Positions 4,472 to 52,545 of a stretch of DNA of 64,000 bases are shown here, one piece after another (the first letter of the stretch is position 1; every line of letters begins with the position of its first letter). The stretch is from an uncultured Lentimicrobiaceae bacterium (GTDB lineage: Bacteria; Bacteroidota; Bacteroidia; Bacteroidales; UBA4417). The notes below the pieces were generated by a model. It had not been told where the DNA came from. It worked only from the letters and a program-made list of their open reading frames with translations, and did no database searches. A program made the position numbers and the translations under genes. Location: the NCBI GenBank assembly GCA_964420555.1, contig CAYQTT010000004.1, forward strand, positions 26,679 to 90,678, in the 5' to 3' direction.

Positions 4472-4693
4472 TTCGCGGTGATATTTGTTTTAAAGAATTT
4501 TTTTGGCTTAAATTGTAAAATAAAAGGAATTAAGATGTGAGAAAACCACTTATTGGATAAAATCATTTTTTTGAAAAGGCATATGTATTCCTATAAACGA
4601 GAAAACAAATGCATATGGTAACTTTAAGTATTTAAGATGAGTCTGAATCATAAACAGAAAAATAAATCCAACATTTCAGGAATTCTTCATGTA

Positions 4694-27454: not shown

Positions 27455-27509
27455 ATAAATGGAAATTTCAAAGAAATAATTCAAATCATTGATTTAAACA
27501 CAAGAAAAA

Positions 27510-27905: not shown

Positions 27906-27992
27906 GAATTATTAAATTGTGTTGAATTATATTTCTATAAGCATTTTTGGTAATTTTATTACTCCAAATTTAAGCACCATTAAATCTTCATA

Positions 27993-28199
27993 ATGCAGAT
28001 TATCAAAAACATATACCAGTTTTACTACCAGGGATTTAAAGGTATGACTGTGGGCAAAAAGTTATGGGCGATCATACTTATTAAGCTTGCAATCATGTTC
28101 CTGATACTGAAATTGTTCTTTTTCCCAAACTACCTGAAAACTAACTTTGATACAGACCAGGAGCGGAGCGACCATGTGATTGAACAACTGACGAAATAA
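27993..28199 (+). CDS. DUF4492 family small membrane protein
   Basis: FYYQGFKGMTVGKKLWAIILIKL..LKLFFFPN; typical position upstream of Bacteroidota cydA. Confidence 0.85.
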   Translation: MQIIKNIYQFYYQGFKGMTVGKKLWAIILIKLAIMFLILKLFFFPNYLKTNFDTDQERSDHVIEQLTK

Positions 28200-28298
28200 G
28201 GGTTTCATGTTTCATGTTTCAGGTTTCTGGTTGATCTCTTTCTCCATTCTCCCCCTCTCTAACTTAATAAGCAATATTTTCTCTCAAAAAAACAACAT

Positions 28299-29873: not shown

Positions 29874-29892
29874 CCCTTAAAAACCAAGAATC

Positions 29893-32083: not shown

Positions 32084-34198
32084 ATGAAAATAAAAATATT
32101 ACTTCTCACAGCCTCCGTGCTGATGCTCATGAGCGGATTAAAAGCTCAGGATCTGGCTGATACAATTAGCCTGGGAGCAGTCGAAATCAGGGATTCATTG
32201 ATAATACGTGCGCCTTTTGTTACATCGCAAGTTACAAAAGCGGTATTGCAGGCTGCGCCTACTCGTGATGTAGGAGAATACCTGCGCAGCATTCCTAACG
32301 TCAGTGGTATTCGCAAGGGTGGCGGTGCCATCGACCCTGTTGTGCGTGGTTTCAAATTCAGCCAGTTAAACGTAGTGATGGATGGAGGAATAAAGATTGA
32401 AAACGGTTGTCCCAACCGCATGGACCCGGTTTCGGCACATGTTGAAGTAGAGGAGCTTGCGAAAATAAATGTAGTGAAAGGCCCTTTCCTGCTCAATTAT
32501 GGCCCCGCTATGGGCGGTGTAATTGATCTGCAGACCGAAAATCCTCACCCTTATGCGAAATTTGAAATTCACGGGAATGCCATGTTTGGTTATGAAACAA
32601 ACTGGGATGGTGCAAAGGAACATTTTTCGTTGTATGGCGGAAACAGCAGAATTTACTTCCTGGCCAACGGAGGTTACCGTAAATACGGTGATTACTCAAG
32701 CGGAGGTTCCGAAGGTGAGGCAAAAGAGTATAACACCTCTTTCCGGAAATACAATTACGGCGCAAAAGTAGGATATGCCATTACCTCAAAGCAGGAAATT
32801 CTGCTTTCGTACAGCGAAGTCCATGGCAGGGATGTTATGTTTCCTGCCCTCACTATGGACGAAAAAAGCGATGACACCCGTTTGATGGCCATGGATTATG
32901 CAGTTAAAAACTTATCGGGAATAATCAGATCGCTGGATGTAAAAGTTTACCGGACTGACGTTGCACATCTTATGGACAACAGCAACCGCGAAACATGGAA
33001 AACAAAACAAATGGTTGCCGATGTGGATGCTTTAAATACAGGTGGAAAAGCAATTTTGGGTATGAAAATAAAGAATCACAACCTTACAGCCGGATTGGAT
33101 TATGAAAATATATACAAAGATGGTGTCCGAAACATGACCATGACGATGATGGGAACTACTTCCACCAAACGATTCAATCTCTGGAATAAGGCTCTCATTC
33201 AGAATGCGGGATTGTTTGCCGGTTACAATACAGTTATTAAATCATTCGCACTGGATGCGGCTCTCCGTGTCGATTTTAACAATGCCGATTCGGAGGATAC
33301 CCTGGTGCTGATTAAAAACGGGGTGGAATATTTTAACGAAACCGCGTCGCAGTTTGTAAATGTTAGCGCCAACCTGGGGGTAACGCATTATTTTGCTGAA
33401 AATTTTTCGGTTTCCTTAGCTCTTGCCCGCGGTACCCGCAGCCCCAATATGCTTGAGCGTTATGTGAAACTGCTTACTGTTGGCTACGATAGTTACGATT
33501 ACCTGGGAAACCCCCAACTCAAACCCGAAGCCAATAATGAAGTGGACCTTACATTCAAATATACGGATCCGAAACTTGGAAGCATGTATGTGAATGGATT
33601 TTACTCCTATGTCCAGGATTATATTTCGGCAGTTTTGCTCCCATCATCCGTTATAATGCCGGCAACTCTTGGTGCGCCGGGCGTAAAGCAGTATGTTAAT
33701 GTGGACAGAGCGACTTTTACCGGTTTCGAAATCGGATATACTTCACCGCAAACGTATAAACTTGGGTTAAGTGTTATAGCTGCTATGACATATGGGCAAA
33801 TTCCTGAAGTAACAAAATATATAATTACTTCGGGGCAGGTAACAGGGGACACACTTTTGAAAAACGATGCACTGCCCGAAATACCGCCATTTGAAACAAC
33901 AATCAGTGTAAACTATCGTTTATTAAAAGGGAAGCTGGTACCCAAAATCTCGTACAGACTTGTTGCTGCACAAAATCACGTTTCCGAAGCATTTTATGAG
34001 CCGGAAACACCGGGATTTTCTCTTTTGAATTTCTCAATTGCTTACAGTATAACTAAGAATATTAACATAAATGCAGGTGCAAACAATATCTTTGACGTGT
34101 CGTATTACGAACATCTGAACCGGAAAATCGTGGGGTCAACGGAAAAACTTTACGAACCCGGCCGCACGTTTTTTGTAACGATTAACCTTTCAATCTGA
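32084..34198 (+). CDS. TonB-dependent receptor, OprC/NosA copper-receptor-like
   Basis: Plug motif GCPNRMDP (CxxxM); Met-rich MTMTMM segment; EPGRTF C-terminus. Confidence 0.85.
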   Translation: MKIKILLLTASVLMLMSGLKAQDLADTISLGAVEIRDSLIIRAPFVTSQVTKAVLQAAPTRDVGEYLRSIPNVSGIRKGGGAIDPVVRGFKFSQLNVVMDGGIKIENGCPNRMDPVSAHVEVEELAKINVVKGPFLLNYGPAMGGVIDLQTENPHPYAKFEIHGNAMFGYETNWDGAKEHFSLYGGNSRIYFLANGGYRKYGDYSSGGSEGEAKEYNTSFRKYNYGAKVGYAITSKQEILLSYSEVHGRDVMFPALTMDEKSDDTRLMAMDYAVKNLSGIIRSLDVKVYRTDVAHLMDNSNRETWKTKQMVADVDALNTGGKAILGMKIKNHNLTAGLDYENIYKDGVRNMTMTMMGTTSTKRFNLWNKALIQNAGLFAGYNTVIKSFALDAALRVDFNNADSEDTLVLIKNGVEYFNETASQFVNVSANLGVTHYFAENFSVSLALARGTRSPNMLERYVKLLTVGYDSYDYLGNPQLKPEANNEVDLTFKYTDPKLGSMYVNGFYSYVQDYISAVLLPSSVIMPATLGAPGVKQYVNVDRATFTGFEIGYTSPQTYKLGLSVIAAMTYGQIPEVTKYIITSGQVTGDTLLKNDALPEIPPFETTISVNYRLLKGKLVPKISYRLVAAQNHVSEAFYEPETPGFSLLNFSIAYSITKNININAGANNIFDVSYYEHLNRKIVGSTEKLYEPGRTFFVTINLSI

Positions 34199-35013
34199 TG
34201 CAAACCAAATATGCCTTGTTCCTTTCACTACTTCTTGGCGCTTTGTTGCTGATGAATATATCGTGTAACAATGATGATCCGGATGTTAAGGAAACGGCAG
34301 GGCATATTTCTTTTACTTTCACTCATTTGGTAGATGGACAGGTCTTGCAAAAAGACAATATGAAGTATTTAAATGCCGCCGGAAACCCGTATGAAATAAT
34401 CCAGGTAATGTATTTTATTTCGGATGTTACGCTTCATAAATCCGATGGAACCAAAAAACTGATCCGGGATTGGACCGATATTTATTATGTGGATATCGAT
34501 TTACCTGAAACACTTATCTGGGATGTGTATGATGATATTGCCACAGGAGCATACGATTCTGTTACTTTTATTTTCGGGATCACCAAAGAGAAAAATCAAT
34601 CGTTCCGCTTTGTAAATCCACCCGAAGTAAATATGATGTGGCCCGATATTTTAGGCGGCGGCTATCATTATATGATGATCAACGGGAGTTGGAAGGACAA
34701 TGAAAATGTAATAAAGAGCTACGCTTTTCATCTGGGAATCGGGCAGTTATACAACAGCAATGTGATAGAAGTGGATTCCATTTATGCTTTTGTACAGAAT
34801 TATTTTAACGTAAAGTTGCCCAATTCATCTTTTACTATTGAAGATAGTAAAACATGTAATATTGAAATCATTATGAATGTTGATAGCTGGTTTAAGACGC
34901 CGCATATCTATGATCATAATTATTGGGGCGGAGCAATAATGCAGAAGCAACCGGCTATGCAGATGGCAAAGGAAAACGGATTTGATGTGTTTGAGGTTGG
35001 CGTGATTCAATAA
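34198..35013 (+). CDS. MbnP-family copper-binding lipoprotein
   Basis: Lipobox ISC; YFISDVTL, MMWP...GGGYHYM, FHLG; TGATG overlap with the TBDT. Confidence 0.7.
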   Translation: MQTKYALFLSLLLGALLLMNISCNNDDPDVKETAGHISFTFTHLVDGQVLQKDNMKYLNAAGNPYEIIQVMYFISDVTLHKSDGTKKLIRDWTDIYYVDIDLPETLIWDVYDDIATGAYDSVTFIFGITKEKNQSFRFVNPPEVNMMWPDILGGGYHYMMINGSWKDNENVIKSYAFHLGIGQLYNSNVIEVDSIYAFVQNYFNVKLPNSSFTIEDSKTCNIEIIMNVDSWFKTPHIYDHNYWGGAIMQKQPAMQMAKENGFDVFEVGVIQ

Positions 35014-41109: not shown

Positions 41110-41700
41110 ATGGGAATTACTGGAATCATCCTCGCCGGAGGAAAAAGTTCCCGCATGGGCACTGATAAAGGTTTGCAGGAACTTTGTGGAAAACCATTGA
41201 TCAGTTATGCTATTCAAGTGCTTTCAGGATTATGCGAAACTATTATTATCAGCTCATCATCTGATGCTTATAAGTCGTTTGGGTACAAAGTAGTAGCTGA
41301 TGAGTTTCCGGGTATTGGCCCGATGGGAGGTATTTATTCAGCTTTAAAACAGAGTAAAACCGAGAAGAATCTGGTGCTTTCGTGCGATCTTCCATTTGTA
41401 ACAACTGAATTACTTTCGTTTATCCTTCAGAATTCTGATGGATTCGAGGTTTCTGTTCCCTGCGAAGGAAACCGGCATTATGAGCCACTTTGCGCATTTT
41501 ACCGGCTCTCAGTTTTAGACAAGATGACTGAATTCATTCACAACGGAAATTTTAAATTACCTGATTTGTTCGAAGCCGTTTGTGTTAATAAATTGAATAT
41601 CAATAAAGAACATTCTGTTTTTCATGAAAACCTCTTTTTGAATATCAATTCGAAACATGAGCTGGCAACAGCTGAAATACTGATGAATTGCAGGAAATAA
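41110..41700 (+). CDS. mobA: Molybdenum cofactor guanylyltransferase
   Basis: ILAGGKSSRMGTDK, GPMGGI, SCDLPF, EPL, NIN. Confidence 0.93.
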   Translation: MGITGIILAGGKSSRMGTDKGLQELCGKPLISYAIQVLSGLCETIIISSSSDAYKSFGYKVVADEFPGIGPMGGIYSALKQSKTEKNLVLSCDLPFVTTELLSFILQNSDGFEVSVPCEGNRHYEPLCAFYRLSVLDKMTEFIHNGNFKLPDLFEAVCVNKLNINKEHSVFHENLFLNINSKHELATAEILMNCRK

Positions 41701-41742
41701 ATTTCAGTTTTAACAAAATACTTTAGTAATATTGCCGCATAA

Positions 41743-41853
41743 TTCTCCGAGTCTTCATTTCTAACAATCCGAAAAGATTAATGAAATGCTGACCGATGGG
41801 TTGCCCCGGAAACAGGTCAGCCTCCCGAATGCAAACTGAATTGGAAAGGAGAA
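41743..41853 (+). ncRNA. Moco RNA motif (molybdenum-cofactor riboswitch)
   Basis: CTCCGAG...CTAA...CCGATGGG...GAAAC...GCCTCCCG...TTGGAAAGGAG; closing stem TTCTCC/GGAGAA covers GGAG just before ATG 41856; next to mobA. Confidence 0.85.
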
Positions 41854-41855
41854 CC

Positions 41856-42590
41856 ATGGTACAATACGAATTACTTTTTGTGATAGGCCTTATGCTTATC
41901 GCATTTTTCTACTCATCGGTCGGACATGGCGGAGCCAGTGGTTACCTGGCATTGATGGCGCTTTTCGGGCTTGCTCCTGATTCAATCCGCTATTATGCTT
42001 TAATTCTGAACCTGGCGGTTTCGGCTATCGCTTTCATTTCGTATTTCAGAGCAGGGTTTTTCAGGTGGCGGCAGATTGTTCCTTTTCTGGTCACCTCTAT
42101 TCCCTCAGCCTATATCGGCGCTACATTCAGCATAAATCCAACAGCTTACAAAATCATTTTAGGAGTAATGCTTTTGGTAGCCGTTGCCCGAATGCTACTG
42201 ATCCGTAATTCCGAAAATGATGTAACTCATGATCCTCCCTTGTTATTGGCACTCGGAATTGGGTTGGTACTTGGTCTGGTTTCGGGAATAATCGGGATCG
42301 GTGGAGGTATTTTACTATCACCTATTCTGATTTTGGCTAAATATGCAAGAATCAAAGAGGCATCAGCAGCTTCGGCCCTGTTCATTTTTCTTAATTCAGC
42401 AAGTGGTCTTGCAGGATTGATGACTTCGCAGTTTATTTTTCAAACCAATATAGTTTTTTGGATTCTGGGTGTCATGATAGCCGGGCTTGTTGGTTCGGCT
42501 ATGGGAAGCCGCACGTTTTCGGAACTTAACCTTAAACGTGTTTTGTCACTGGTACTGCTCGCTGCCAGTATAAAGCTGTTTTTCTTTTAA
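41856..42590 (+). CDS. TauE/SafE (TSUP) family permease
   Basis: YSSVGHGGASGY and SGIIGIGGGILLSP repeats; about 8 TM helices. Confidence 0.9.
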   Translation: MVQYELLFVIGLMLIAFFYSSVGHGGASGYLALMALFGLAPDSIRYYALILNLAVSAIAFISYFRAGFFRWRQIVPFLVTSIPSAYIGATFSINPTAYKIILGVMLLVAVARMLLIRNSENDVTHDPPLLLALGIGLVLGLVSGIIGIGGGILLSPILILAKYARIKEASAASALFIFLNSASGLAGLMTSQFIFQTNIVFWILGVMIAGLVGSAMGSRTFSELNLKRVLSLVLLAASIKLFFF

Positions 42591-42651
42591 ATGATATAGT
42601 GAATAGGGTTTGGGGGTAAGGGACTTGCAAATGAGGAATTGGGTTCAGTTT

Positions 42652-45369
42652 TTAGAAAACCGGCATTACGCAACGTTTGTTACTCTCACGAATCACTTTA
42701 TCAAAATCCAGCAGGCTTCGTTTCATTACATTTGATGTTGCATCATGACAGGTAAGGCATGCGCCGGCAGTGAGAATTCGTTTTTGCTCAGCAAGGTTAA
42801 AAGGTCGCATGCCAATCCGCGTTGAGGCCTGATCTTTACGCTCCTGCAGAAAACCAGTCCATGAATCTTCGGGCAAGCCATCGTATTTGTTGTTTTGATA
42901 TAGAGGGTCAAAAGTCCATTTTCCGCTTTCAGAATAAAATAAATTCCCTCGTCCATATCCTATGGCCAGCGGATCATTGTGACAGGATTTGCAGCTTCGC
43001 CCTTCGCGCTGTGTGGTATGTGCCGATGAAGGTGCATACAAACGGTGAAATACAGTTTTATCCCCTTTACTAAATGAACCCTTGTCGATAGTCATGATCA
43101 TTCCGGGTGTAAACGTACTAACCACGCCATTTTTCTTTGTTTTATCGGCTGCATTTATGCCAAGTACCGGCAATTCCGCCATGCCTTCTGTTGAATGTTC
43201 AATCCATGTTCCTTTTCGTGTTGAGTTTTTCAGCATATCAAAACCCATAGTCTGACTTTCGTAACTGTTATGACATCCAATGCATTGGGGCGCCCAGGCT
43301 GTGTGGCAGGCTTCGCAACTCAACCGTGCATGAGCTTTACCTTCGGTACAAACTTTGGCAGGTGGTTTCATAATTGCTGTGCCGGTTCCTGATTTTCTGA
43401 TCATACTCATGTAAGTTCCTGATTCATCCACAATCGTGTTAACAAGCGGAAAATCTCCCTTTTGAGTAAGAATTACCTGGATTCCTTCAGTTTGAAATTT
43501 CCGCAGCCACGAAATAAGTTGAGTCTCCTGATCGGTTTCGGTAAGACGTTTCTGCTTATATGCTTTTTGTGTATGACAGTCGCTGCATTGAACCTTCACT
43601 GCATCTTCCTTATGGGAGTAATGTTTCCCATCACCCATCAGTTCATACGATCCATGACAATCCACGCAAAGCATTCCTTTCTCGTGGTGGACATCTGCCG
43701 GCATTTTTACAAAAACGCGTTTATCGGGCAGAACCAGGTAATTGTCCTTGCCTTTGACATTTTCAGGCTTTTGTTCAGTTTCATGCCATCCTTCGTAATT
43801 CATTGATATCCGGCCCGACCGGCTATGACAACTCTTGCACTTATCGTTGGTTATATTCAGATCGAGGGCTGGATGAAACATCGGAAGTGATGTATCCGAT
43901 TTCTGCCTTCGTTTCATTTGATTCAATGTCGACAGCGCCTTTTCATCATAAGTAAGATGGCATGCCAGGCATCCACCGCCACGCTCAAGCCAGGCAGACG
44001 GACCGGTTTTTGTCTTTTCATTACCCAGATGACAACCGGCGCATAAATTACGCAAATGCTGTCCGGAAGCGGTATAACCTATGTCCTTTATGTGTGATTG
44101 TAAATTTAAATCTTCTGTTTCGCCAAAAACCCATTTGTCAACACTGATAATTCCACTTAGAGTTGACATCAGCGAGGTGTTCACCCGATCTGTAATTCCC
44201 AGGTGGCAACCCACTTTACCGCAAGCTTCTGTCGCATTGGACAAATTACCCGGAACACCAAACATTTTGCGATGGGCTTTTGCTTTGTCGAGTGTAAAAG
44301 GATCGCCACCGTGGCACGAAAAACATCCGATATATTCAGGTTTGTGCGCAACCGAAAAACCACTCATCCCGTTATGGCAGGTAACACAACCTTCGGCATG
44401 CCCTTGAATAATGATAAGCTGAGCTGTGTCGGGAGCTGTAAAATTGATTTTCTCCGAATGAACCAGCGATTGTACTTTGTAATTATTATCCCAGGGCCAC
44501 TGCCATTGCCACATAGCACCGCGAAAGAAAAATCCTGTTATAGTCAGCAAAGCATACAGGATGATCATACCAACAAAAAAATGCTTGATTAATTTGCTGT
44601 AGATTGGTTTCACCCATGGAATCAGGTAAATCAATACCAGAAGTGCCAATAGCCCTATGGTTATCAGAAGCGGGTTTGAAACCCAGTGAAGCGTTTCCTG
44701 CAGTCCGACAAAATACCAAGGGCCTTTCATTATTGTTTCGTTGAGCCCGTTGAGTGGCGCCCTGAAGAGGAAACTGAAGATTATGATAATAATAGTTGTA
44801 GCGAGTAAAGTTTGCAAGTTCACTTTTAAACTCCGCGCATGCTCCATGATGATTACGAAAAGAATCACTGTAGCTGTAGCTGCATGTTGAATATACAGAA
44901 CCTGGAAATTACCCTCTTTGCCTATTAATGTTTGTTGCAACATTTGTCCGATCCACGGGAGACTGCTTACCAGCGATGAAAGTATCCGGTGCGCCTGTAA
45001 ACTATCGCCATCGGCTTTCAATATAAATCCGGAAAGCATCACATAAACAGCAAAAACTAACGAAAGAGTAAGCCGGAACCATACGCTTTTCTTTTTGATA
45101 TTGCTTTCAGTGCCTTTCCAAAGATGATCGAAAACATGTATAAATGTGAGTATAAGAAAGAGTTGCGCACTCCAGTAATGCATATTCCGTAAAATGGAAG
45201 CAGCAGGATTGGCTGTCACAAGTTTGGTAAGCGAAAGATAAGGAGATGCCACATCATAGGGTACTGCCAGCAAAGCTCCCGAAACAGCGCAAAGGATTAT
45301 AGATGCCGTAGCAACCCATCCGTATGTGTCGAAAGCAATGTACCTGCGTATGTTATCGGGAATTTTCAA
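42652..45369 (-). CDS. Cytochrome b/b6 domain fused to a multiheme cytochrome c (11 CxxCH + 1 CX4CH)
   Basis: RNMHYWSA...IH and QH...EH heme-b ligand pairs, GPWY (PEWY-equivalent); CVTCH, CFSCH, CGKVGCH, CAGCH, CLACH, CKSCH, CVDCH, CSDCH, CEACH, CIGCH, CKSCH, CLTCH. Confidence 0.88.
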   Translation of the reverse strand: MKIPDNIRRYIAFDTYGWVATASIILCAVSGALLAVPYDVASPYLSLTKLVTANPAASILRNMHYWSAQLFLILTFIHVFDHLWKGTESNIKKKSVWFRLTLSLVFAVYVMLSGFILKADGDSLQAHRILSSLVSSLPWIGQMLQQTLIGKEGNFQVLYIQHAATATVILFVIIMEHARSLKVNLQTLLATTIIIIIFSFLFRAPLNGLNETIMKGPWYFVGLQETLHWVSNPLLITIGLLALLVLIYLIPWVKPIYSKLIKHFFVGMIILYALLTITGFFFRGAMWQWQWPWDNNYKVQSLVHSEKINFTAPDTAQLIIIQGHAEGCVTCHNGMSGFSVAHKPEYIGCFSCHGGDPFTLDKAKAHRKMFGVPGNLSNATEACGKVGCHLGITDRVNTSLMSTLSGIISVDKWVFGETEDLNLQSHIKDIGYTASGQHLRNLCAGCHLGNEKTKTGPSAWLERGGGCLACHLTYDEKALSTLNQMKRRQKSDTSLPMFHPALDLNITNDKCKSCHSRSGRISMNYEGWHETEQKPENVKGKDNYLVLPDKRVFVKMPADVHHEKGMLCVDCHGSYELMGDGKHYSHKEDAVKVQCSDCHTQKAYKQKRLTETDQETQLISWLRKFQTEGIQVILTQKGDFPLVNTIVDESGTYMSMIRKSGTGTAIMKPPAKVCTEGKAHARLSCEACHTAWAPQCIGCHNSYESQTMGFDMLKNSTRKGTWIEHSTEGMAELPVLGINAADKTKKNGVVSTFTPGMIMTIDKGSFSKGDKTVFHRLYAPSSAHTTQREGRSCKSCHNDPLAIGYGRGNLFYSESGKWTFDPLYQNNKYDGLPEDSWTGFLQERKDQASTRIGMRPFNLAEQKRILTAGACLTCHDATSNVMKRSLLDFDKVIRESNKRCVMPVF

Positions 45370-45372
45370 TTT

Positions 45373-45801
45373 TTAGATTTTAATTGTGATTTCTCCCGTT
45401 TTTGCATCAGTGGTGAAAGGAATAGCAGATAAGGGTAAACCTGCCGGCCCTTGTAACACTTTACCTGTTTCGGAGTCGTACCTTGAGCCATGACAAGGGC
45501 AAACAAGCTGATCTCCGATTACCTGGTTAATCCGGCAACCTGCATGCGTGCAACTGTTTGAGAATACTTTCAATGTTTTGTCTGACTTGATTACAATGAA
45601 ATTATCGAACCAATGTATACCCGTTCCAAGTTTTGCGACATTAATTCTCTTGATTTCAGGGATATTCTCCAATTGTTTCTGTTTGCCTGTCATTAACCGC
45701 CAGAGCACGACAAAAGCTGCCACCATTGATAAAGTTGCAATCCGGAGAAATGTTTTCCTGTTTATCTTTTTGTTTTCAATCATGGATTTAACAATCATCA
45801 A
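45373..45801 (-). CDS. Rieske [2Fe-2S] protein (start codon uncertain)
   Basis: CTHAGC and CPCHGS boxes; Tat-like NRKTFL anchor. Confidence 0.92.
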   Translation of the reverse strand: MMIVKSMIENKKINRKTFLRIATLSMVAAFVVLWRLMTGKQKQLENIPEIKRINVAKLGTGIHWFDNFIVIKSDKTLKVFSNSCTHAGCRINQVIGDQLVCPCHGSRYDSETGKVLQGPAGLPLSAIPFTTDAKTGEITIKI

Positions 45802-46095
45802 AACTATAAAGATTTTTCTTCAATGTTACACAAGATAGTTCTTTATAAAACGGTTGTAATCATATTATTTTATGATCCATGACAGTTAATTATTTGAGTT
45901 TTTATTATAATGCTTAATATGCAGATAATCAGGCAAATGAATTTTTTGAATCAAATTTATAAGCATTCTAAAGAAGCTATTATGTTGTTGATAATGAAAT
46001 TATTACGAAAGAAGACTGAAGTAGTGTGATTTCTCATGATTTTTTAACTATCATATAATCAAAGCAATACGGTTATAGTTACATACTTATCATTT

Positions 46096-46126
46096 TTTGT
46101 ATGTATTAGAGTTTACTATACTTTTG
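46096..46126 (+). promoter_or_regulatory. Consensus Bacteroidota promoter for the psr operon
   Basis: TTTG (46096-46099), 19-nt spacer, TACTTTTG (46119-46126). Confidence 0.7.
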
Positions 46127-46194
46127 TTATTCAATAAACAATTGGATGCCTTTTGGATATTGTAAATGATTGATTTTTAAAAGAATAAAATCAC

Positions 46195-48432
46195 ATGAAA
46201 ACAAGGAGAGATTTTATTAAAATTTCAGCATTAGGCCTGGGAGCCACAGCTGTTACGGCTGGTACTGCCAAAGCTTTACTGGGTTCATCTTTGTTTGGTA
46301 ACGATAGTGAAAACGAAACCGCAGCACTTCGCAGAGTACCTACATACTGTGAGGTATGTTTCTGGAAATGCGCCGGCTGGGCTCATGTTACCGAAGATGG
46401 AAATATAAAAAAGATAACCGGCAACGACGACGACCCACAATGCAACGGCAGGCTTTGTCCGCGTGGCACGGGTGGAGTCGGCATGTTTACGGACCCTGAC
46501 AGGTTAAAACAACCACTTATCCGCGTTGGAGAAGTTGGCAACCAAACTTACAAGGAAGCCAGTTGGGATGAAGCATTTGATTACATCGCCAAAAAAATGA
46601 ATGATCTGAAGGCCAAATACGGGCCCGAAAGCATGGCGCTTTTCTTCCATGGTTCGTCAGGGAATCATTTTTCGCACCTGATGAAAGCCTATGGATCCAC
46701 TAACCTGGCTGCTCCTTCGTTCGCACAGTGCCGCGGCCCGCGCGATGTAGGCTTCGAAGCTACTTTTGGCGAATCAGTCAGTAGTCCTGAAGTTACTGAC
46801 ATACGTGATACCAAATGCCTTGTGCTTATCGGTTCGCATATCGGCGAAAATATGCACAACGGTCAGGTACAGGAAATGAGCGAGGCAATAGATAAAGGTG
46901 CTGTTATTATTACAGTTGATCCGAGGCTTTCAACAGCGGCATCCAAATCAAAATTCTGGCTGCCGATAAAACCATCTACCGATATAGCACTTCTGTTAGC
47001 TTGGATTCATGTATTGATTAATGATGATCTGTATAACAAGGAATATGTTGCAGCTTATGCTGAAGGATTTGATGAACTGAAAGCTCATGTTAAACAGTTT
47101 ACACCAGAATGGGCATATGGAATTACTACGCTGAAACCTGATCTTATCCGCAGTACTGCCCGCGAAATGGCGAATGCTGCTCCTTCAGTTATCATTCATC
47201 CCGGGCGTCATGCCGCGTGGTATGGTGACGATGTGCAACGAACAAGGGCAATAGCAATACTTAATGCTCTTTTGGGTTCATGGGGAAACAGGGGAGGAAT
47301 CTTCTTTAAAGAAGGTATCAAGATTCCTGAATTCCCACATCCTGAATATCCAAAACCTGCCTGGTCGTGGAAAGATCTGCTTGATGGAAAATATCCACTG
47401 GCTAACGAGGCTGTTACCAACTCAGTAATCGAGGCTTCGTATCCTAAGGACGGCAAAGACGCAAGAATAAAAGGCTGGTTTATTTCGGGTACAAATCTTG
47501 TTGCTTCGGTTCCATTAAAAGAAGAACTTCAAAAGGCTGTTCAAGCACTCGAATTGATAGTTGTTGTGGATACTATGCCAATGGAAATCACCGATCTTGC
47601 CGATGTTGTTCTACCCGAATGCACTTATCTTGAGAGGTACGACGATATTCGTGCTACTTCGCACCGCGAACCTACACTCAGCCTCCGCATGCCGGCAGTT
47701 GAACCCTTGAATCAAACCAAACCAGCCTGGTGGATTGCCAAACAACTTGGTGAGCGACTCGGTCTGGGTGCATATTTCAATTATAAAGACTATTCCGAAG
47801 TACTCGACTGGCAGCTAAAACAAGTAGGTTCTTCGCTCGAAGAGATGCAACGGATAGGTGTTAAAAAGACGTCACGGAAAACCTCTCCATATATTGAGCC
47901 GGGGACTGTGCATCAATTCAAAACAGCTTCGGGGAAAATACAGTTGTATGCGCATGAGTTGGCTGAAGCTGGATTTGATCCAATGCTTGTATTTACAAAA
48001 CATCCTGAACCTCAGGAAGGTTTTTATCGTTTGATTTATGGCCGTGCACCTATGCATACATTCAGCCGTACAGCCAATAATCCAAACCTGGTAGCACTTA
48101 TGCCCGAAAATTCGGTTTGGATAAATCCGCAGGTTGCCCGTATTTGGGGAATAAAAAAAGACCAGTACGTATGGCTTAAAAACCAGGATGGAGCTATTTC
48201 GAACTTCTCAGTAAAAGTGAGGCTGACCGAACGTATCCGCTGGGACTCAGTGTACATTGTTCATGGTTTTGGACATCATCATAAACCTCTGAAATTCGCT
48301 TATGGAAGAGGCGTGAACGATACTGAACTGATTACCAACGTTATGTTGGATCCTGTTATGGGCGGAACCGGTATGAGAGGAAATTTTATTACATTTTTAA
48401 CTGAAGACCCAAGAAAGGAGGCTGAAGCATGA
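46195..48432 (+). CDS. psrA: Polysulfide/thiosulfate reductase molybdopterin catalytic subunit (PsrA/PhsA family)
   Basis: Tat signal TRRDFIK; CEVCFWKC...CPRG 4Fe-4S; SFAQCRGPR Cys Mo ligand region; ADVVLPECTYLER. Confidence 0.88.
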   Translation: MKTRRDFIKISALGLGATAVTAGTAKALLGSSLFGNDSENETAALRRVPTYCEVCFWKCAGWAHVTEDGNIKKITGNDDDPQCNGRLCPRGTGGVGMFTDPDRLKQPLIRVGEVGNQTYKEASWDEAFDYIAKKMNDLKAKYGPESMALFFHGSSGNHFSHLMKAYGSTNLAAPSFAQCRGPRDVGFEATFGESVSSPEVTDIRDTKCLVLIGSHIGENMHNGQVQEMSEAIDKGAVIITVDPRLSTAASKSKFWLPIKPSTDIALLLAWIHVLINDDLYNKEYVAAYAEGFDELKAHVKQFTPEWAYGITTLKPDLIRSTAREMANAAPSVIIHPGRHAAWYGDDVQRTRAIAILNALLGSWGNRGGIFFKEGIKIPEFPHPEYPKPAWSWKDLLDGKYPLANEAVTNSVIEASYPKDGKDARIKGWFISGTNLVASVPLKEELQKAVQALELIVVVDTMPMEITDLADVVLPECTYLERYDDIRATSHREPTLSLRMPAVEPLNQTKPAWWIAKQLGERLGLGAYFNYKDYSEVLDWQLKQVGSSLEEMQRIGVKKTSRKTSPYIEPGTVHQFKTASGKIQLYAHELAEAGFDPMLVFTKHPEPQEGFYRLIYGRAPMHTFSRTANNPNLVALMPENSVWINPQVARIWGIKKDQYVWLKNQDGAISNFSVKVRLTERIRWDSVYIVHGFGHHHKPLKFAYGRGVNDTELITNVMLDPVMGGTGMRGNFITFLTEDPRKEAEA

Positions 48433-48962
48433 GGTACGCCATGGCTATCGACACCAAAAAATGTGTAGGGTGCAGCGACTGTGTTGTTGCATGCCAGACT
48501 GAAAATAATGTTCCCATTGGTTTTTGCCGCGATTGGGTAAGCGAAACCGTTGATGGTACATACCCCAATGTTAGTATTGAATTACGCTCAGAACGCTGTA
48601 ACCATTGTGATGATTCTCCTTGTGTACGCTGTTGCCCGACCGGTGCCAGCCATTTCGAGGACGGTGGCATAGTGCTGGTAACTCCTCATAAATGCATCGG
48701 TTGCGGTGCCTGCATCCAGGCTTGCCCATACGAAGCAAGGTATTCGCATCCTGATGGTCATGTGGATAAATGCACTTTTTGTATTCACCGTGTGCGCAGA
48801 GGCGAAGATCCGGCCTGTGTGAGTGTTTGCCCAACCAGCTGTATGTATTTCGGCGATCTCGACGATCCTAATTCAGAGATCATAAATGTTCTGAAAAACC
48901 GGAAATTTAAATCACTGGCACCGGAAGCCGGCACGAAACCTCAGATTTTCTATTTAGTTTAA
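48429..48962 (+). CDS. psrB: 4Fe-4S subunit (PsrB/NrfC family)
   Basis: CVGCSDCVVAC, CNHCDDSPC..CCP, CIGCGACIQACP, KCTFC. Confidence 0.92.
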   Translation: MRYAMAIDTKKCVGCSDCVVACQTENNVPIGFCRDWVSETVDGTYPNVSIELRSERCNHCDDSPCVRCCPTGASHFEDGGIVLVTPHKCIGCGACIQACPYEARYSHPDGHVDKCTFCIHRVRRGEDPACVSVCPTSCMYFGDLDDPNSEIINVLKNRKFKSLAPEAGTKPQIFYLV

Positions 48963-48985
48963 CACAACCGCAAAAACAGAAAACT

Positions 48986-49927
48986 ATGAAAGAAGAATTG
49001 TTTGTAAGCGGACGCAACATTCCCAATATTGACCCTTACCTGAATATCTGGCATTGGCAGATACCAATCTACCTTTTCCTTGGCGGACTCGCAGCCGGTA
49101 TATTGTTCCTTGCCGGGGTGTACACTATTCTTGGTAAAGAAAAAGAAATGCAGGCAACTGTAAAATGGGCTCCGTTTATAGTGCCTTTTGCACTGATTAT
49201 CGGTTTATTCATGCTTTTTCTCGATCTAAAGCATAAACTGTATTTCTGGCAATTGTATACCACCATTCGTCTGGAATCACCGATGGGTTGGGGTGCATGG
49301 GTGCTGATGATTATGACGCCGATATCAATCATCTGGTCGGCTAGTTATATCAAAGAAGTTTTCCCGAAATGGGATTGGAAATTTGGTTTCCTGAATACAT
49401 TCGAAGCCTGGGTGATAAGAAACAGGAAAAATATAGCCTGGCCAATGGTAATCTATGCTGTAATCCTGGGAATTTATACCGGAATTTTACTTTCAGCATT
49501 TAATGCCCGCCCCTTATGGAATACGACTATCCTTGGTCCTTTGTTCCTGGTCTCGGGTATGTCCACCGGCGCAGCCTGTATAATTCTGATGAGTAAAAAT
49601 CATGAGGAACGAAGGCTTATCGGACGCCTCGACATACTTTTTATTGTAGTCGAGTTATTCTTCATCACCCATATGATTATGGGATTTCTTGCAGGTTCCG
49701 AAGTGCAGATTCAAGCCGCTAATCTGTTCCTCGGAGGACAGTTTACAGTTCCGTTTTTCGTATTTGTCATTGTATTGGGATTAATATTCCCGGCATTTCT
49801 GGAAGTACTCGAACTTATGGGGTACAAAATCCCGATACTGATACCAGCTGTACTTGTACTTTTTGGCGGGCTTATCTTTCGCTTTATTATGGTAGAAGCT
49901 GGTCAGATAACACGTTATTTGTATTAG
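48986..49927 (+). CDS. psrC: NrfD/PsrC membrane anchor
   Basis: WHWQIPIYLFLGGLAAG, SPMGWG, YTGILLS, RPLWN. Confidence 0.92.
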   Translation: MKEELFVSGRNIPNIDPYLNIWHWQIPIYLFLGGLAAGILFLAGVYTILGKEKEMQATVKWAPFIVPFALIIGLFMLFLDLKHKLYFWQLYTTIRLESPMGWGAWVLMIMTPISIIWSASYIKEVFPKWDWKFGFLNTFEAWVIRNRKNIAWPMVIYAVILGIYTGILLSAFNARPLWNTTILGPLFLVSGMSTGAACIILMSKNHEERRLIGRLDILFIVVELFFITHMIMGFLAGSEVQIQAANLFLGGQFTVPFFVFVIVLGLIFPAFLEVLELMGYKIPILIPAVLVLFGGLIFRFIMVEAGQITRYLY

Positions 49928-50037
49928 GGGTTGGGTAGGCGTAACGAGAGGGAAAAAAGGAGAAGTGGTGTCTTCCGACTTCCGACTTCCAGCAATTTGA
50001 TACTTTCAATTACTTTTAAAAGAAAAATTAGTCAATT

Positions 50038-50565
50038 ATGGCAACTAATAACAGAGACGGCTCATTTTACATCAATCCATACCTGGGAGGTGTATTGTTG
50101 GGGCTGGTGCTTTTCAGCACCTATTATATAACCGGCCGCGGACTCGGTGCAAGCGGTGCAGTAAAAAGTACGGTAGTTACAGCAGTTCATACCGTAGCAC
50201 CTGTACATGCCGAAGATAACGGGTATTACAGCAAATTTCTGAGTGATGATGAAAGCCCGATGAATAACTGGCTGGTTTTCGAAGTACTTGGCGTACTTGT
50301 GGGTGGATTTTTATCGGGTGCACTTTACGGACGATTGAAATTTAAAGTGGAGCATTCGCCCAAGATCTCAAGCAACAAAAGGCTTGTGGCTGCCCTGATA
50401 GGAGGAATGCTATTCGGAATAGGCTCCCAGTTTGCCCGTGGATGCACCAGTGGTGCCGCCCTAAGCGGAATGGCTGTGCTTTCTGCTTCGGGTATTATTA
50501 CCATGATGGCGATATTCGGTTCGGCCTACCTGTTTTCCTGGATCTTCAAGAAACTATGGATCTAA
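50038..50565 (+). CDS. YeeE/YedE sulfur transporter half
   Basis: GLGASG, GGFLSG, ARGCTSG motif. Confidence 0.9.
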   Translation: MATNNRDGSFYINPYLGGVLLGLVLFSTYYITGRGLGASGAVKSTVVTAVHTVAPVHAEDNGYYSKFLSDDESPMNNWLVFEVLGVLVGGFLSGALYGRLKFKVEHSPKISSNKRLVAALIGGMLFGIGSQFARGCTSGAALSGMAVLSASGIITMMAIFGSAYLFSWIFKKLWI

Positions 50566-50649
50566 CAATATGACTACCTTTTAGGTATTCAATCACATCA
50601 ATCGTATCAATCACCTCAATCTTTTAAAACGTAATTAAATAATCATCAT

Positions 50650-51243
50650 ATGATAGGACCTCTAATTCCAATGGGTGTTATCCCCGAATCCTGGAACAAC
50701 CTTCTGGCATTATTGCTAGGCATAGGTTTCGGCTTTGCTCTCGAAGCCTCGGGCTTTTCATCGTCGCGCAAAATCATGGGTACCTTTTTCGGGTACGATT
50801 TTGTAGTATTACGCGTTTTCTTTACAGCCGCAATTACCGCTATGATTGGTATTATATATTTCGATTTTATGGGCTGGATGGATTCGTCCCTGCTTTATAT
50901 CAATCCGTATTATGTAATGTCAGCTGTTGTAGGCGGTATAATAATGGGTTTCGGATTTGCCCTTGGGGGATATTGTCCCGGAACCAGTTTTTGTGGTGTT
51001 GCCATCGGTAAAATTGATGCCCTTGTTTTTGTAGGCGGTTTATTAATCGGCATATTCATATTTTCGGAACTGTATCCGCTTTTCGAAGGTTTATACAACA
51101 GCGGTAACCTCGGCGGAGCCAAAATATATGATTTACTTGGTATGCGCGAAACCGTTTTTGCATTCCTGCTTATAGTTGCTGCAGTTGGTATGTTTTACGG
51201 GGCAGCTTTTGTCGAAAAGAAAGTTAAAAAAGTTGAATACTAA
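50650..51243 (+). CDS. YeeE/YedE sulfur transporter half
   Basis: GIGFGFALEASGF, GGYCPGT motif. Confidence 0.9.
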   Translation: MIGPLIPMGVIPESWNNLLALLLGIGFGFALEASGFSSSRKIMGTFFGYDFVVLRVFFTAAITAMIGIIYFDFMGWMDSSLLYINPYYVMSAVVGGIIMGFGFALGGYCPGTSFCGVAIGKIDALVFVGGLLIGIFIFSELYPLFEGLYNSGNLGGAKIYDLLGMRETVFAFLLIVAAVGMFYGAAFVEKKVKKVEY

Positions 51244-51254
51244 CCAAAGTTTGT

Positions 51255-51881
51255 ATGAACAAAAATTATCTGTTATTGGCCGGAATTGTAATCGCACTCG
51301 GTATCGGAATGCTTTTCATGCCGGAAAAAGAGCCGGGAAACCAGGTAAAGCCTGAATTGTTGCTTGCTGCTATCGATGATCCGTCGAGGTTTTTGTCAAC
51401 CGATGATATTACCGACCGTTTGGTGAAAAAGGATCCGGCACTTATGCTTATCGATGTAAGACCAGAAAAGCAGTTTAATGAATTTGCTATTCCGGGAGCC
51501 ATTAATATTCCGGTTGATTCCTTGTTTTCGGTTACAGCAAAGGATTTACTGAGCCAGAATGCCAGGGATAAGGTGCTTTATTCAAATTCCGATGTTACAT
51601 CCGACCAGGCATGGATTGTGTGTAAACGTACAGGCATTCAGCGGATTTATATTATGCAGGGCGGCATTAACAAGTGGTTCAATACTATTGTTAAAGCTCA
51701 AAAACCTGCTGAATCAGCCCCGGCTGAGGACTTTGATCTGTACAGTTTCCGGATGGCTGCGAGCCAGCACTTTTTTGGCAGTGCCGGAGCTGATAATAGT
51801 ACCGGTAAAGAAAATGAGCCTAAAAAGGTTATTAAAGTTGCTAAAAAGCCTGTGGAAGCTTCGTCAGGAGGAGGTTGTTAA
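51255..51881 (+). CDS. Membrane-anchored rhodanese-fold protein lacking the loop Cys, C-terminal EASSGGGC
   Basis: LIDVR..F...AIPGAINIP, MQGG..W; active-site position reads VLYSNS. Confidence 0.85.
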   Translation: MNKNYLLLAGIVIALGIGMLFMPEKEPGNQVKPELLLAAIDDPSRFLSTDDITDRLVKKDPALMLIDVRPEKQFNEFAIPGAINIPVDSLFSVTAKDLLSQNARDKVLYSNSDVTSDQAWIVCKRTGIQRIYIMQGGINKWFNTIVKAQKPAESAPAEDFDLYSFRMAASQHFFGSAGADNSTGKENEPKKVIKVAKKPVEASSGGGC

Positions 51882-51903
51882 TCTGTTTTGAAATCTTATT
51901 TAT

Positions 51904-52545
51904 ATGAAAGAATTAACTAAAACCAACCGGCTCACAATTGTAGTTGTAGCCTTTGTACTGGTAATTATTACCGGATTAATAACATTCAGAAGACCGGATA
52001 TTAAATATGTACTCACTCCTTCCGAAAGTCTTTTACTCTTAAATGATACCAGTGCTTTTGTTACGCCACTACAAGTAAATTCAATGCTTCGCGATAGTTC
52101 AGGAAAAAATGTTTTTGTGGATGTGCGCAATTCCATCGCGTTTGATCGTGGTCATCTGAAAAGCGCAGTTAATATTCCCGTTAGGGATTTGTTTTCAGAA
52201 AAAAGCAAATCATTTTTCAAAGAAATCGAAAAAGCAGGTCAAACTGTAATTGTATATGGAGAAACTCAGCAGCAAGCCAACGGGCCCTGGCTGATGCTTC
52301 GCCAGACAGGTTTTAAAAATGCGAAACTTTTTACAGGGATTTATGCCCAACTTGATCCTGCACAGGCTGATTCGTTAATCAGGCTTTTACCTCAGCTTAG
52401 TGAAACGCCTCTGATTGATACTGCTGCGCTCAAAGCTTTGACGTCACCTAAAATGGCTGATAAAAATATTGACCAACCAGCAAAAGCAACTAAAAAGACC
52501 GTTGTTCCAGCTAAAAAGGAAGCTTCATCAGGCGGTGGTTGCTGA
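51904..52545 (+). CDS. Membrane-anchored rhodanese-fold protein lacking the loop Cys, C-terminal EASSGGGC
   Basis: FVDVR..FDRGHLKSAVNIP; active-site position reads IVYGET. Confidence 0.85.
   Translation: MKELTKTNRLTIVVVAFVLVIITGLITFRRPDIKYVLTPSESLLLLNDTSAFVTPLQVNSMLRDSSGKNVFVDVRNSIAFDRGHLKSAVNIPVRDLFSEKSKSFFKEIEKAGQTVIVYGETQQQANGPWLMLRQTGFKNAKLFTGIYAQLDPAQADSLIRLLPQLSETPLIDTAALKALTSPKMADKNIDQPAKATKKTVVPAKKEASSGGGC

Follow-up and report, generated by a model that had tools for sequence, protein, structure and literature searches.

The bc-type arm of a putative sulfur-respiration locus in an uncultured Lentimicrobiaceae bacterium was found to accompany a polysulfide reductase-like (Psr) arm across the Bacteroidales, and it was never seen without that arm in 401 sampled genomes. 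The locus lies in a 64,000 nucleotide stretch of contig CAYQTT010000004.1 (G000:C4:26679-90678), referred to here as the window, from a Bacteroidota genome of 5.6 Mb that is 96% complete. Open reading frame (ORF) calls and family scans gave the gene order queA, mobA, a riboswitch and tauE on the plus strand, genes for a cytochrome b/12-haem fusion protein (hereafter the fusion) and a Rieske protein on the minus strand, an intergenic gap, and then psrABC-yeeE-yeeE-rhd-rhd on the plus strand, ending at 52545. All of the genes that a preliminary description of this DNA had named were recovered where it had placed them. We read the locus, with about as much belief as doubt, as one modular, menaquinol-fed, periplasm-facing respiratory system for sulfur (chalcogen) compounds of intermediate oxidation state.

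A profile search with the fusion against contigs representing one genome per species found 342 relatives. The best 80 of the 342 were fetched with 10-kb flanks and sorted by tblastn with the window's own proteins. All of these loci came from Bacteroidota metagenome-assembled genomes (MAGs) (Lentimicrobiaceae, Prolixibacteraceae, Bacteroidales) except one, which was labelled Omnitrophica. The psrABC-yeeE-yeeE-rhd set, with or without a second rhd, stood next to the Rieske and fusion genes in 54 of the 80 loci, in divergent orientation in 50 and co-directionally in four, and such a recurrence of the arrangement is far beyond chance. Among the other 26 loci, 15 had less than 4 kb of upstream DNA and 11 had at least 4 kb upstream with psr not in the flank; nine of these 11 were close relatives of the window's genus and carried sugar-transporter and PfkB genes upstream of the fusion. 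In all three of the 11 that were checked psrA was on the same contig, 13.8, 18.9 and 32.6 kb away, so the arms had been separated by insertions and not lost. At one locus (L046) all nine genes, psrA-B-C-yeeE-yeeE-rhd-rhd-rieske-cytb/haem, were on one strand, with 5 nt between the second rhd and the Rieske gene and an overlap of 4 nt between the Rieske gene and the fusion.

The distribution of the two arms was determined in 401 evenly sampled Bacteroidales genomes, each at least 90% complete, in which PsrA orthologues had 56-100% identity. The fusion was found in 32 genomes from 14 families and a PsrA orthologue in 121. Both were present in 32 genomes, the fusion only in 0 and PsrA only in 89, and neither was found in 280. 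The fusion and psrA were less than 8 kb apart on one contig in 28 of the 32, the remaining four being fragmented assemblies. The preliminary description had proposed that the two arms belong together; within the Bacteroidales the neighbourhood bears this out, as 32 of 32 fusion-bearing genomes had a PsrA orthologue and four loci were single operons. It had also held that Psr needs no Rieske/cytochrome b partner, which agrees with the presence of Psr alone in 89 genomes. The distribution is thus nested: Psr without the bc-type complex is common, and the bc-type complex without Psr was not seen in the 401 genomes. All ten of the Psr-only loci that were fetched kept psrABC, both YeeE halves and a rhodanese-like gene. 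The nested loci contents therefore describe a system of two layers: the core consists of Psr, the split YeeE and a Cys-tailed carrier, and the add-on of the Rieske protein, the cytochrome b/12-haem fusion and usually a second carrier. Outside the Bacteroidota, partial homologues were found that by source name came from Ignavibacteria, Calditrichaeota, Kapaibacterium and Oligoflexia. Additionally, 20 sequencing runs held part or all of 42652-52545; these were rock/groundwater, lake water, sediment and freshwater metagenomes, and none was recorded as RNA.

The lineage had been described as usually fermentative, and the gene content of the host does not fit a plain fermenter. Besides NrfHA and cytochrome bd, the organism has genes for DmsE-like cytochromes and for one that is ActA/QrcA-like. 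At G000:C5:47225-52332 (L109:11225-16332) there are two adjoining ORFs, of 533 aa with 20 CXXCH motifs and of 1175 aa with 43, in a region that probably encodes an extracellular electron-transfer apparatus. This region also holds a CcsBA fusion and DmsE-like cytochromes with 4, 5, 8 and 11 haems. These proteins are relevant to a reading in which the two arms are independent neighbours, the fusion being a general complex III for the multihaem cytochromes of the host (nitrite, metal or extracellular electron transfer) and the synteny regulatory or historical. NrfHA, the DmsE-like cytochromes and the 20- and 43-haem proteins would indeed need a quinol oxidase, sugar-utilisation genes have been inserted between the arms in nine close relatives, and Psr is alone in most Psr-bearing genomes. 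We nonetheless regard this reading as very unlikely. A general complex III sits poorly with the finding that 0 of 32 fusion-bearing genomes were without Psr, with a distance of under 8 kb in 28 of 32 genomes across 14 families, with the four single-operon loci, and with the existence of a second cytochrome b and of the ActA/QrcA-like complex for general duties. It is also at odds with a parallel association, in Geobacter, with a different polysulfide reductase (described in part in PMC13510729).

The catalytic subunit PsrA (46195-48432, plus strand, 745 aa), predicted to be of the molybdenum-bis(pyranopterin guanine dinucleotide) (Mo-bisPGD) type, matched Thermus thermophilus PsrA (2vpw_A, E 4.3e-199) over residues 4-735. 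The N-terminal CxxCxxxC...C motif was kept, and Cys179 aligned with Cys173 of the Thermus chain, which we take to be the Mo ligand. PsrB (48429-48962, plus strand) is a four-cluster ferredoxin subunit (Pfam Fer4_11, 1e-23) that scored below the cut-off with every ArrB, NrfC, TtrB and DsrO-like NCBIfam model, and PsrC (48986-49927, plus strand) is an NrfD-family quinol-interacting membrane subunit (Pfam NrfD, 2.3e-43) with 7-8 hydrophobic segments. The twin-arginine translocation (Tat) motif RRDFIK, the iron-sulfur (FeS) cysteine motif, Cys179 and the A-B-C order with Fer4_11 and NrfD subunits place the enzyme in the PsrA/PhsA/SrrA lineage. It resembles PsrABC of T. thermophilus (2VPW) and Wolinella succinogenes in its full-length PsrA, Mo-ligand cysteine, FeS motif, Tat signal, PsrB and NrfD-type PsrC. 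The best NCBIfam model for PsrA was PhsA (NF012032), whose score of 504.5 bits was below the cut-off of 694, and PsrA was not classed as a PhsA equivalog. The substrate of PsrA is not assignable from sequence, because PsrA, PhsA and SrrA are, in the available part of PMC12949373, not separable by phylogeny, srr being told from psr only by the extra genes srrE, srrD and srrF.

The two yeeE genes each encode one half of a PF04143 protein. The product of 50038-50565 (plus strand) is of the C-terminal-half type (Sulf_transp, 4.7e-22, profile 178-308) and has a single Cys136 in RGCTSG, and that of 50650-51243 (plus strand) is of the N-terminal-half type (Sulf_transp, 3.6e-11, profile 10-150), also matching DUF6691, with Cys109 and Cys115 in GGYCPGTSFCG. 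As two half-size genes they differ from full-length TsuA; the first half scored 47.6 bits with TsuA, and the TsuA models, with cut-offs of 400 and 645 bits, gave 47.6 and 29 bits.

Carrier 1 (51255-51881, plus strand; Pfam Rhodanese, 3.8e-15) and its paralogue carrier 2 (51904-52545, plus strand; Pfam Rhodanese, 2.7e-12) are predicted to be membrane-anchored rhodanese-fold proteins. Both have one N-terminal transmembrane (TM) helix, no cysteine in the rhodanese active-site loop, a Lys-rich linker of about 60 residues and a tail ending ...SSGGGC. The loop of carrier 1 reads YSNSDVTS, and its only cysteines are C123 and the terminal C208. An alignment of 33 carrier 2 sequences revealed a near-invariant glycine at the position of the catalytic cysteine and an invariant terminal GGC, and GGC or GGGC ended every carrier orthologue listed. 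Of the 46 fusion loci with a detected first rhd, 45 also had the second paralogue. Of the ten Psr-only loci, nine had a terminal GGC tail, six with one such carrier and three with two. A search of the ESM Atlas with carrier 1 matched only Bacteroidota clusters that were unnamed or named 'rhodanese domain'. The carriers thus have the rhodanese fold (by Pfam) and not the catalytic cysteine of the sulfurtransferases Sud, GlpE and PspE. Sud of Wolinella is a rhodanese-type periplasmic sulfur carrier for Psr; in contrast to the Psr/Sud systems, the carriers here lack the catalytic cysteine, are membrane-anchored and have a tail cysteine, and a split YeeE and a private Rieske/cytochrome b-multihaem complex are added. 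In SoxYZ a c-type cytochrome enzyme serves the sulfur-carrying cysteine, which is on a flexible, Gly-rich arm at the C-terminus. The carriers may work like SoxY without belonging to its family, as they have a Pfam rhodanese domain and no SoxY domain or fold, a cysteine that is last (GGGC) and not within GGCGG, a much longer linker and a membrane anchor. Separately, a 398-aa ORF about 4 kb downstream of the fusion in two loci (L058:16803-17999 and L061:16737-17933) ends in ...KGGC and may be a third kind of Cys-tailed protein.

The fusion (42652-45369, minus strand, 905 aa) joins a cytochrome b with eight TM helices (Pfam Cytochrome_B) to a 12-haem domain predicted to be periplasmic. The haem count of the preliminary description was exact, with 11 CXXCH and one CX4CH motifs, and it was identical in all 70 full-length relatives. 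Two cysteines outside these motifs, Cys674 and Cys900, are invariant and are candidates for ligands or for residues of an active site. The four haem-b histidines His64, His78, His162 and His177 were invariant in 68 sequences. The Qo motif was KGPW[YF]F, reading KGPWYF in the window, with GPWY in 33 and GPWF in 45 of the 80 loci. A Foldseek search with a model of the whole fusion found only cytochrome b chains, the bc1 cytochrome b matching with E 3.5e-8 over about 330 columns. The Rieske [2Fe-2S] subunit (45373-45801, minus strand; Pfam Rieske, 1.6e-12; CTHAGC...CPCHGSRY) kept the CTHAGC/CxCH boxes in 70 of 70 relatives, the window reading CTHAGC/CPCHGS. With these motifs and this fold the complex has every sequence feature of a working bc-type complex. 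The Rieske signature was S-Y in the window and, among the relatives, S-Y in 24 of 70 and S-F in 46 of 70. In the part of PMC4122944 that covers them, S-Y and S-F denote high and Mid+ potential, also for the GPWY clade, which predicts a high potential for the window's Rieske protein and Mid+ to high potentials across its relatives. In 45783-45801, the longest Rieske ORF has as its first codon a TTG overlapping a conserved TAnnTTTG-like box; the real start is probably Met7, at 45783, which would leave an RKTFLR Tat-like motif near the N-terminus.

The closest named families are those of the Geobacter ext cluster. Residues 322-891 of the fusion matched NCBIfam ExtM with 250.7 bits (model 16-592 of 599; cut-off 800) and its N-terminus matched ExtP with 53.4 bits (cut-off 290), and the Rieske protein gave no match to ExtO (cut-off 200 bits). 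By these scores the fusion domains are homologues of ExtM and ExtP and not equivalogs. The GPWY/GPWF Qo motif and the Mid+/high Rieske signature place the complex, judged by motif only, in the GPWY clade (Kao & Hunte 2014). That clade includes a cytochrome b of Ignavibacterium album fused to a 'triheme c7' domain (PMC4122944, in part), and the likeness extends to the C-terminal multihaem fusion. The available part of the same paper gives the motif, the clade and the 'triheme c7' fusion, with no partners or function, whereas 12 haem motifs and a linkage to Psr are found here. A stand-alone cytochrome b elsewhere in the host (G000:C17:5774-9809, L110) is 28% identical to the N-terminus of the fusion and adjoins a gene for a 769-aa 8-haem tetratricopeptide repeat (TPR) protein.

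A phmmer search of the fusion against Protein Data Bank (PDB) sequences gave cytochrome b and weak NrfA matches only, leaving the haem domain without a relative among PDB sequences. The AlphaFold mean predicted local distance difference test (pLDDT) score was 81.6 for the whole fusion and 74 for the haem domain alone, which is modelled with a beta-rich sub-domain. When the haem-domain model was compared with 48,161 chains by VIA-align, the only match above Z 3 was 1sp3_A (Z 6.6, root-mean-square deviation 4.3 Å, 207 of 436 residues, 13% identity), and the next had Z 2.9. This Shewanella octahaem cytochrome is named octahaem tetrathionate reductase (OTR) in the accessible text of PMC12949373 and PMC5317091. 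OTR of S. oneidensis (1SP3) is thus the sole structural neighbour of the model, through a weak and partial match (Z 6.6, 207 residues, 13% identity), and has eight haems as against 12 here. A predicted complex of the haem domain with carrier 2 (residues 35-213) reached a best score of 0.22, below the mark of 0.32, in a run without controls.

The nearest parallel to the whole locus is extHIJKLMNOPQS of Geobacter sulfurreducens, which is described, in the available parts of PMC5877670 and PMC2825233, as encoding a rhodanese-like lipoprotein (ExtH), a phosphate-porin-like protein (ExtI), a Rieske protein (ExtO), a cytochrome b (ExtP), a 12-haem cytochrome (ExtM) and ExtKL. A report of August 2026 shows that ExtKL is MccSep, a polysulfide reductase and five-haem selenoprotein without which elemental sulfur (S0) is not respired and which also reduces selenite (PMC13510729, in part); the portion available does not discuss the bc-type genes, and 'Rieske' occurs 0 times in it. 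Both loci have a Rieske protein, a cytochrome b, 12 haems, a rhodanese, a porin and a genetic link to a periplasmic polysulfide reductase. They differ in the terminal enzyme, which is the 5-haem selenoprotein MccSep in Geobacter and the molybdoenzyme PsrABC here; unlike in Geobacter, a single polypeptide comprises the 12-haem protein as well as cytochrome b and its C-terminal half; no equivalents of ExtN, ExtS and ExtJ were seen here; and the YeeE halves and GGGC-tailed carriers are additions. The likeness of the Bacteroidales locus to the Geobacter cluster is one of homology, with all scores below the equivalog cut-offs. In the host, a search for an MccSep-like protein led to a 451-aa ORF with 5 CXXCH motifs on contig C14, which could be placed in no NCBIfam family and for which PDB sequences gave no match stronger than E 0.003.

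The Srr operon of Bacillus selenitireducens shows a second likeness, in that an enzyme of the Psr/Phs lineage is joined by extra genes (srrE, srrD and srrF), as psrC is followed here by two rhodanese genes and two YeeE halves. Wells is said to have reported in 2019 that the extra srr genes include rhodanese-domain proteins; the possible likeness is one of gene content, and no Rieske/cytochrome b partner is reported for Srr. Further pieces of the system are in print, as Psr with nearby rhodaneses in lake MAGs (10.1101/2020.04.01.018762, in part) and Psr beside two sulfurtransferase genes in Caldithrix abyssi, for which the available text of PMC5317091 gives no respiratory growth and a stimulation of fermentative growth by S0 and thiosulfate. 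The literature search, in which supplementary neighbourhood tables were outside the scope, found no description of a unit of Psr, YeeE, tail-Cys carrier and Rieske/cytochrome b-12-haem complex. The preliminary description's claim of an undescribed system therefore holds for the whole unit, of which no published account was found, and not for the Rieske/cytochrome b/12-haem arm, which has a precedent in Geobacter ExtM/ExtP (Cbc5).

The Geobacter and Srr parallels also bear on a reading as selenite or tellurite respiration or detoxification, in which the Psr-like enzyme would be of Srr type, the carrier thiols would trap selenite as selenotrisulfide and the Rieske/cytochrome b-haem complex would supply electrons. 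NCBI names the Ext families 'selenite/tellurite reduction operon', and the selenite/Se0 couple, at about +0.2 V, would suit a high-potential Rieske centre. Published work implicates Geobacter ExtI in the uptake and reduction of selenite (PMC5877670), selenite is also a substrate of MccSep (PMC13510729), and PsrA, PhsA and SrrA are phylogenetically inseparable, srr differing by its extra genes only (PMC12949373). We consider a primary role in selenium chemistry distinctly unlikely, given that 8% of the sampled Bacteroidales carry the module and 30% the Psr core, that their habitats are ordinary anoxic freshwater, groundwater and digesters, in which sulfur intermediates are far commoner than selenium, and that no selenium-specific genes were seen in the locus.

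As a respiratory system for sulfur compounds, the locus could work as follows. An anionic sulfur species would cross the outer membrane through an ExtI-like porin, and Cys-active (ExtH-like) periplasmic or lipoprotein rhodaneses would take the sulfur as a persulfide and hand it to the terminal cysteine of the carriers. That cysteine, on a flexible Gly-tipped tail of about 60 residues, would replace the lost catalytic cysteine and hold the sulfur covalently, like the SoxY arm or Wolinella Sud, and the length of the tails would let them reach both the PsrA funnel and the haem domain. The two half-YeeE proteins may form a heterodimeric channel. Tat-exported PsrABC would reduce S-S bonds of polysulfide, persulfide or thiosulfate type with menaquinol via PsrC. 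The add-on, by homology with Geobacter ExtO/P/M, would oxidise menaquinol at its Qo site by a Q-cycle and pass one electron through the Rieske protein and the twelve haems to a periplasmic acceptor. This acceptor could be a sulfur or selenium species, possibly carrier-bound, and the product of the haem branch (thiosulfate or carrier-bound sulfur) could be finished by Psr.

The potential of polysulfide/HS- is about -260 mV and that of menaquinone about -74 mV, and the tetrathionate/thiosulfate and selenite/Se0 couples are at about +0.2 V. With the high-potential Rieske signature and OTR as the only (weak) structural match, the acceptor of the haem branch is therefore more likely to be of higher potential than polysulfide, such as tetrathionate, other polythionates or species of the selenite/tellurite type. 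An acceptor of this kind fits the nesting, in which the add-on would be useless without Psr and Psr works alone. It fits the OTR hint, and also a report on Shewanella ANA-3, in which tetrathionate respiration is shared between Ttr and a Psr homologue (PMC12949373). A bolder version, to which we give a low probability, is a tethered-substrate respiration at two potentials, in which sulfur or selenium on the terminal cysteine would shuttle between the low-potential Mo site of Psr and an OTR-like haem site of a Q-cycle engine, both fed from one quinol pool.

Electrons could also run the other way, with reduced sulfur (sulfide, polysulfide or thiosulfate) being oxidised. Psr might be reversed into the menaquinone pool with the bc-type complex passing electrons onward to an acceptor, or the haem domain might take electrons from carrier-bound sulfur with the Rieske/cytochrome b part reversed to reduce menaquinone. 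The combination of Cys-arm carriers and c-type haems resembles SoxY/SoxXA logic, the Rieske signature is S-Y or S-F, and a bd quinol oxidase is encoded 11.6 kb away; in the text available of PMC4122944 the GPWY clade is grouped with APWY as a Mid+/high-potential Rieske type, and APWY is argued to run in reverse. An oxidative role is nevertheless unlikely. The link to the nearby bd oxidase that the preliminary description had offered found no support: of the 80 fusion loci one had CydA in its flank and of the ten Psr-only loci none, and neither a terminal oxidase nor any other acceptor was co-conserved. At 38 of the 80 loci a Crp/Fnr-family regulator is encoded with the cluster, the hosts are, by record titles, anaerobes from anoxic water, sediment and digesters, the nearest characterised relatives (Thermus and Wolinella Psr and the Geobacter MccSep locus) are reductive, and a complex run in reverse from a low-potential donor would spend proton-motive force needlessly.

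The gap between the Rieske gene and psrA (45802-46194), given before as a divergent promoter region of about 390 bp, was measured as 393 bp and is AT-rich. Its alignment with six relatives revealed conserved blocks. The block at 46119-46142 reads TAnnTTTG on the psrA strand. The blocks at 45953-45976, 45922-45932 and 46051-46063 are CTGATTATCAG-like palindromes, imperfect in the window, and 45859-45886 is GATCATA-N6-TATGATC-like; together these blocks are putative shared operators. A scan of the window's intergenic region for FNR boxes (TTGAT-N4-ATCAA, at most 2 mismatches) gave one weak match only. The FNR/CRP-like sequence ATGAT-N4-ATCAT occurs between psrA and the Rieske gene in ten relatives (L034, L052, L062, L066, L071, L074, L076, L077, L079 and L086) and not in the window's region.

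Genes recurring around the fusion in the 80 loci encoded a Crp/Fnr regulator (38), a tandem rhodanese of about 283 aa (25), a Porin_O_P-type porin (17) and a rhodanese of about 341 aa (13), and there were also molybdenum cofactor (Moco)-biosynthesis operons. In the host such genes form a cluster at G000:C4:21353-25369 (L096:5351-9373), in the 1.3-5.3 kb that precede the window start and at a distance of about 45 kb from the locus, that encodes a Crp/Fnr regulator, a lipoprotein whose two rhodanese domains are both Cys-active, a porin and a secreted Cys-active tandem rhodanese; in Prolixibacteraceae-type loci it is directly beside the fusion. The phosphate-porin-like channel of this cluster scored 33.6 bits with ExtI and the tandem rhodanese 46.3 bits with ExtH, both below the cut-offs. 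The porin family was present in 39 of 121 genomes with PsrA and in 16 of 280 without, and often adjoins psr.

These accessory genes are also part of the case against a system for sulfur acquisition, in which external sulfur or polysulfide would be reduced and imported through the YeeE pair for assimilation, or would serve as an electron sink that assists fermentation. YeeE/TsuA is a thiosulfate uptake system, as the NCBIfam names also have it. In the published parts available, the I. album genome paper suggests that its Psr-like enzyme could serve sulfur assimilation (PMC3362086), and Psr with sulfurtransferases did not support respiratory growth of C. abyssi (PMC5317091). Nevertheless, a Q-cycle complex with 12 haems, a porin and several rhodaneses would be a heavy investment for acquisition, and Fnr/Crp-type regulation and the Geobacter parallel point to energy metabolism; we find a purely acquisitive role most improbable.

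Several results weigh against the proposed respiratory system. Its support comes from sequence and distribution. The co-occurrence gave a Fisher p of about 9e-19, which is too optimistic because the genomes are related, the counts likewise overstating independence. Psr was present without the fusion in 89 of the 121 Psr-bearing genomes, and coupling to the bc-type branch is therefore optional. A Mid+ or high-potential Rieske centre cannot plausibly feed polysulfide, so that reduction of polysulfide by both arms would be thermodynamically awkward, and the same puzzle exists in Geobacter. The NCBIfam matches to Ext, Phs and Tsu models were all below the equivalog cut-offs, the Z score of 6.6 for 1sp3_A is below the value of about 8 at which such matches become reliable, and a Foldseek search of the haem-domain model against the PDB found nothing at E <= 0.001. 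The topology of carrier 2 is ambiguous under the positive-inside rule. Finally, MoaE (PF02391) was not found in the 96%-complete host genome, where tblastn with Bacteroidales MoaD and MoaE also gave nothing, and a TorD-type chaperone was not found there either, a Thermus control genome likewise giving no match.

Haem-c maturation and Moco supply had been named as tests of the system. For the former, the host encodes a 1066-aa ORF with ResB and CcsA domains (a CcsBA fusion) and two more CcsA-type genes, and TatC is encoded 6 kb beyond the window. For the latter, MoaA, MoaC, MoeA, MOSC-MoaB and MobA were present. Supply was thus found except for MoaD and MoaE, which were not. Three more genomes with the fusion, of which two are single contigs, likewise gave no MoaE match, and in the sample MoaE was found in 24 of 401 genomes, in 18 of the 121 with PsrA and in 0 of the 32 with the fusion. 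As 103 of the 121 Psr-bearing genomes, closed ones included, gave no MoaE match, the gap is general and not peculiar to this locus, and we treat it as unexplained rather than as a refutation. MoaB is fused to a MOSC domain in the host (G000:C3:237982-242920, L097) and at loci L071, L099 and L106, the genomes of the latter two also being without a MoaE match, and in five of five MoaE-positive genomes only the MoaB half was matched. The MOSC domain may substitute for MoaD/MoaE in sulfur insertion.

Two further Moco-related genes adjoin the locus, as the preliminary description had observed. The product of mobA (41110-41700, plus strand) is a molybdenum cofactor guanylyltransferase (Pfam NTP_transf_3, 2.2e-36; NCBIfam MobA models up to 144 bits, below the equivalog cut-off of 164), and a mobA homologue was in the flank of 29 of the 80 fusion loci. 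Downstream of it, 41733-41867 (plus strand) matched the complete aptamer of the Moco (molybdenum/tungsten cofactor) riboswitch (Rfam RF01055, model 1-135 of 135, E 4.5e-13), with 64 bits against a gathering threshold of 36. The following gene encodes a TauE/SafE (TSUP) permease (plus strand; Pfam TauE, 1.8e-30). Its longest ORF (41796-42590) starts inside the aptamer, and a start at Met21 (41856-42590) is likelier. In a relative (L071) the TauE orthologue (18681-19406) heads a tauE-mobB-like-moeA-moaA-moaC-MOSC/moaB-mobA operon, and at L106:3661-4389 it is likewise first in a Moco-biosynthesis operon. Because it heads Moco-biosynthesis operons in relatives, the riboswitch-controlled TauE is more likely to serve molybdate or tungstate supply than sulfite export. 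A plant protein annotated as TauE is reported to transport Mo in the part of PMC12227400 available.

The locus had been called a self-contained island, a term that does not hold. Its GC content of 0.40-0.44 matches the surroundings, and the accessory rhodanese, porin and Crp genes and the Moco and haem-c maturation genes are elsewhere in the genome. Horizontal acquisition as an island was rejected because the GC content is unremarkable and queA-mobA-tauE synteny is kept within the genus. The locus is flanked by SusC/D pairs and type IX secretion system (T9SS) sorting domains. Elsewhere in the window, 2249-6958 holds two adjoining large ORFs (740 and 754 aa, minus strand) with no Pfam family at E <= 1e-5, and 26490-31065 holds a triad of DUF134, DUF1847 and NifX/NifB-like (Nitro_FeMo-Co) genes just upstream of cydAB. 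A TonB-dependent receptor gene followed by that of an MbnP-family protein occupies 32084-35013, and an MbnH-family di-haem enzyme is encoded at G000:C5:38405-39487, which suggests a copper- or metal-acquisition pair.

In anoxic lakes, aquifers, sediments and digesters, cryptic sulfur cycling is powered by organisms that respire sulfur intermediates, and the Bacteroidales of these habitats are usually counted as fermenters. With the Psr/YeeE/Cys-tail core in about 30% and the extended form in 8% of sampled Bacteroidales species genomes, this capacity may be widely under-counted. If they act as proposed, the rhodaneses that lack a catalytic cysteine and end in GGGC would represent a novel class of sulfur carrier. 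In the extended form, sulfur chemistry is linked with a bc-type complex that may pump protons. The Geobacter locus is a parallel to it, with a polysulfide reductase that became known only in 2026 and a bc complex that is unexplained; solving one should explain the other, together with the uncharacterised GPWY clade. Were the tethered respiration at two potentials to prove true, part of sulfur-compound reduction (tetrathionate or polythionate to thiosulfate, or selenite) would be directly proton-motive in anaerobes that have menaquinone only, and a function would be assigned to Geobacter Cbc5/ExtMNOPQS and to the whole GPWY clade.

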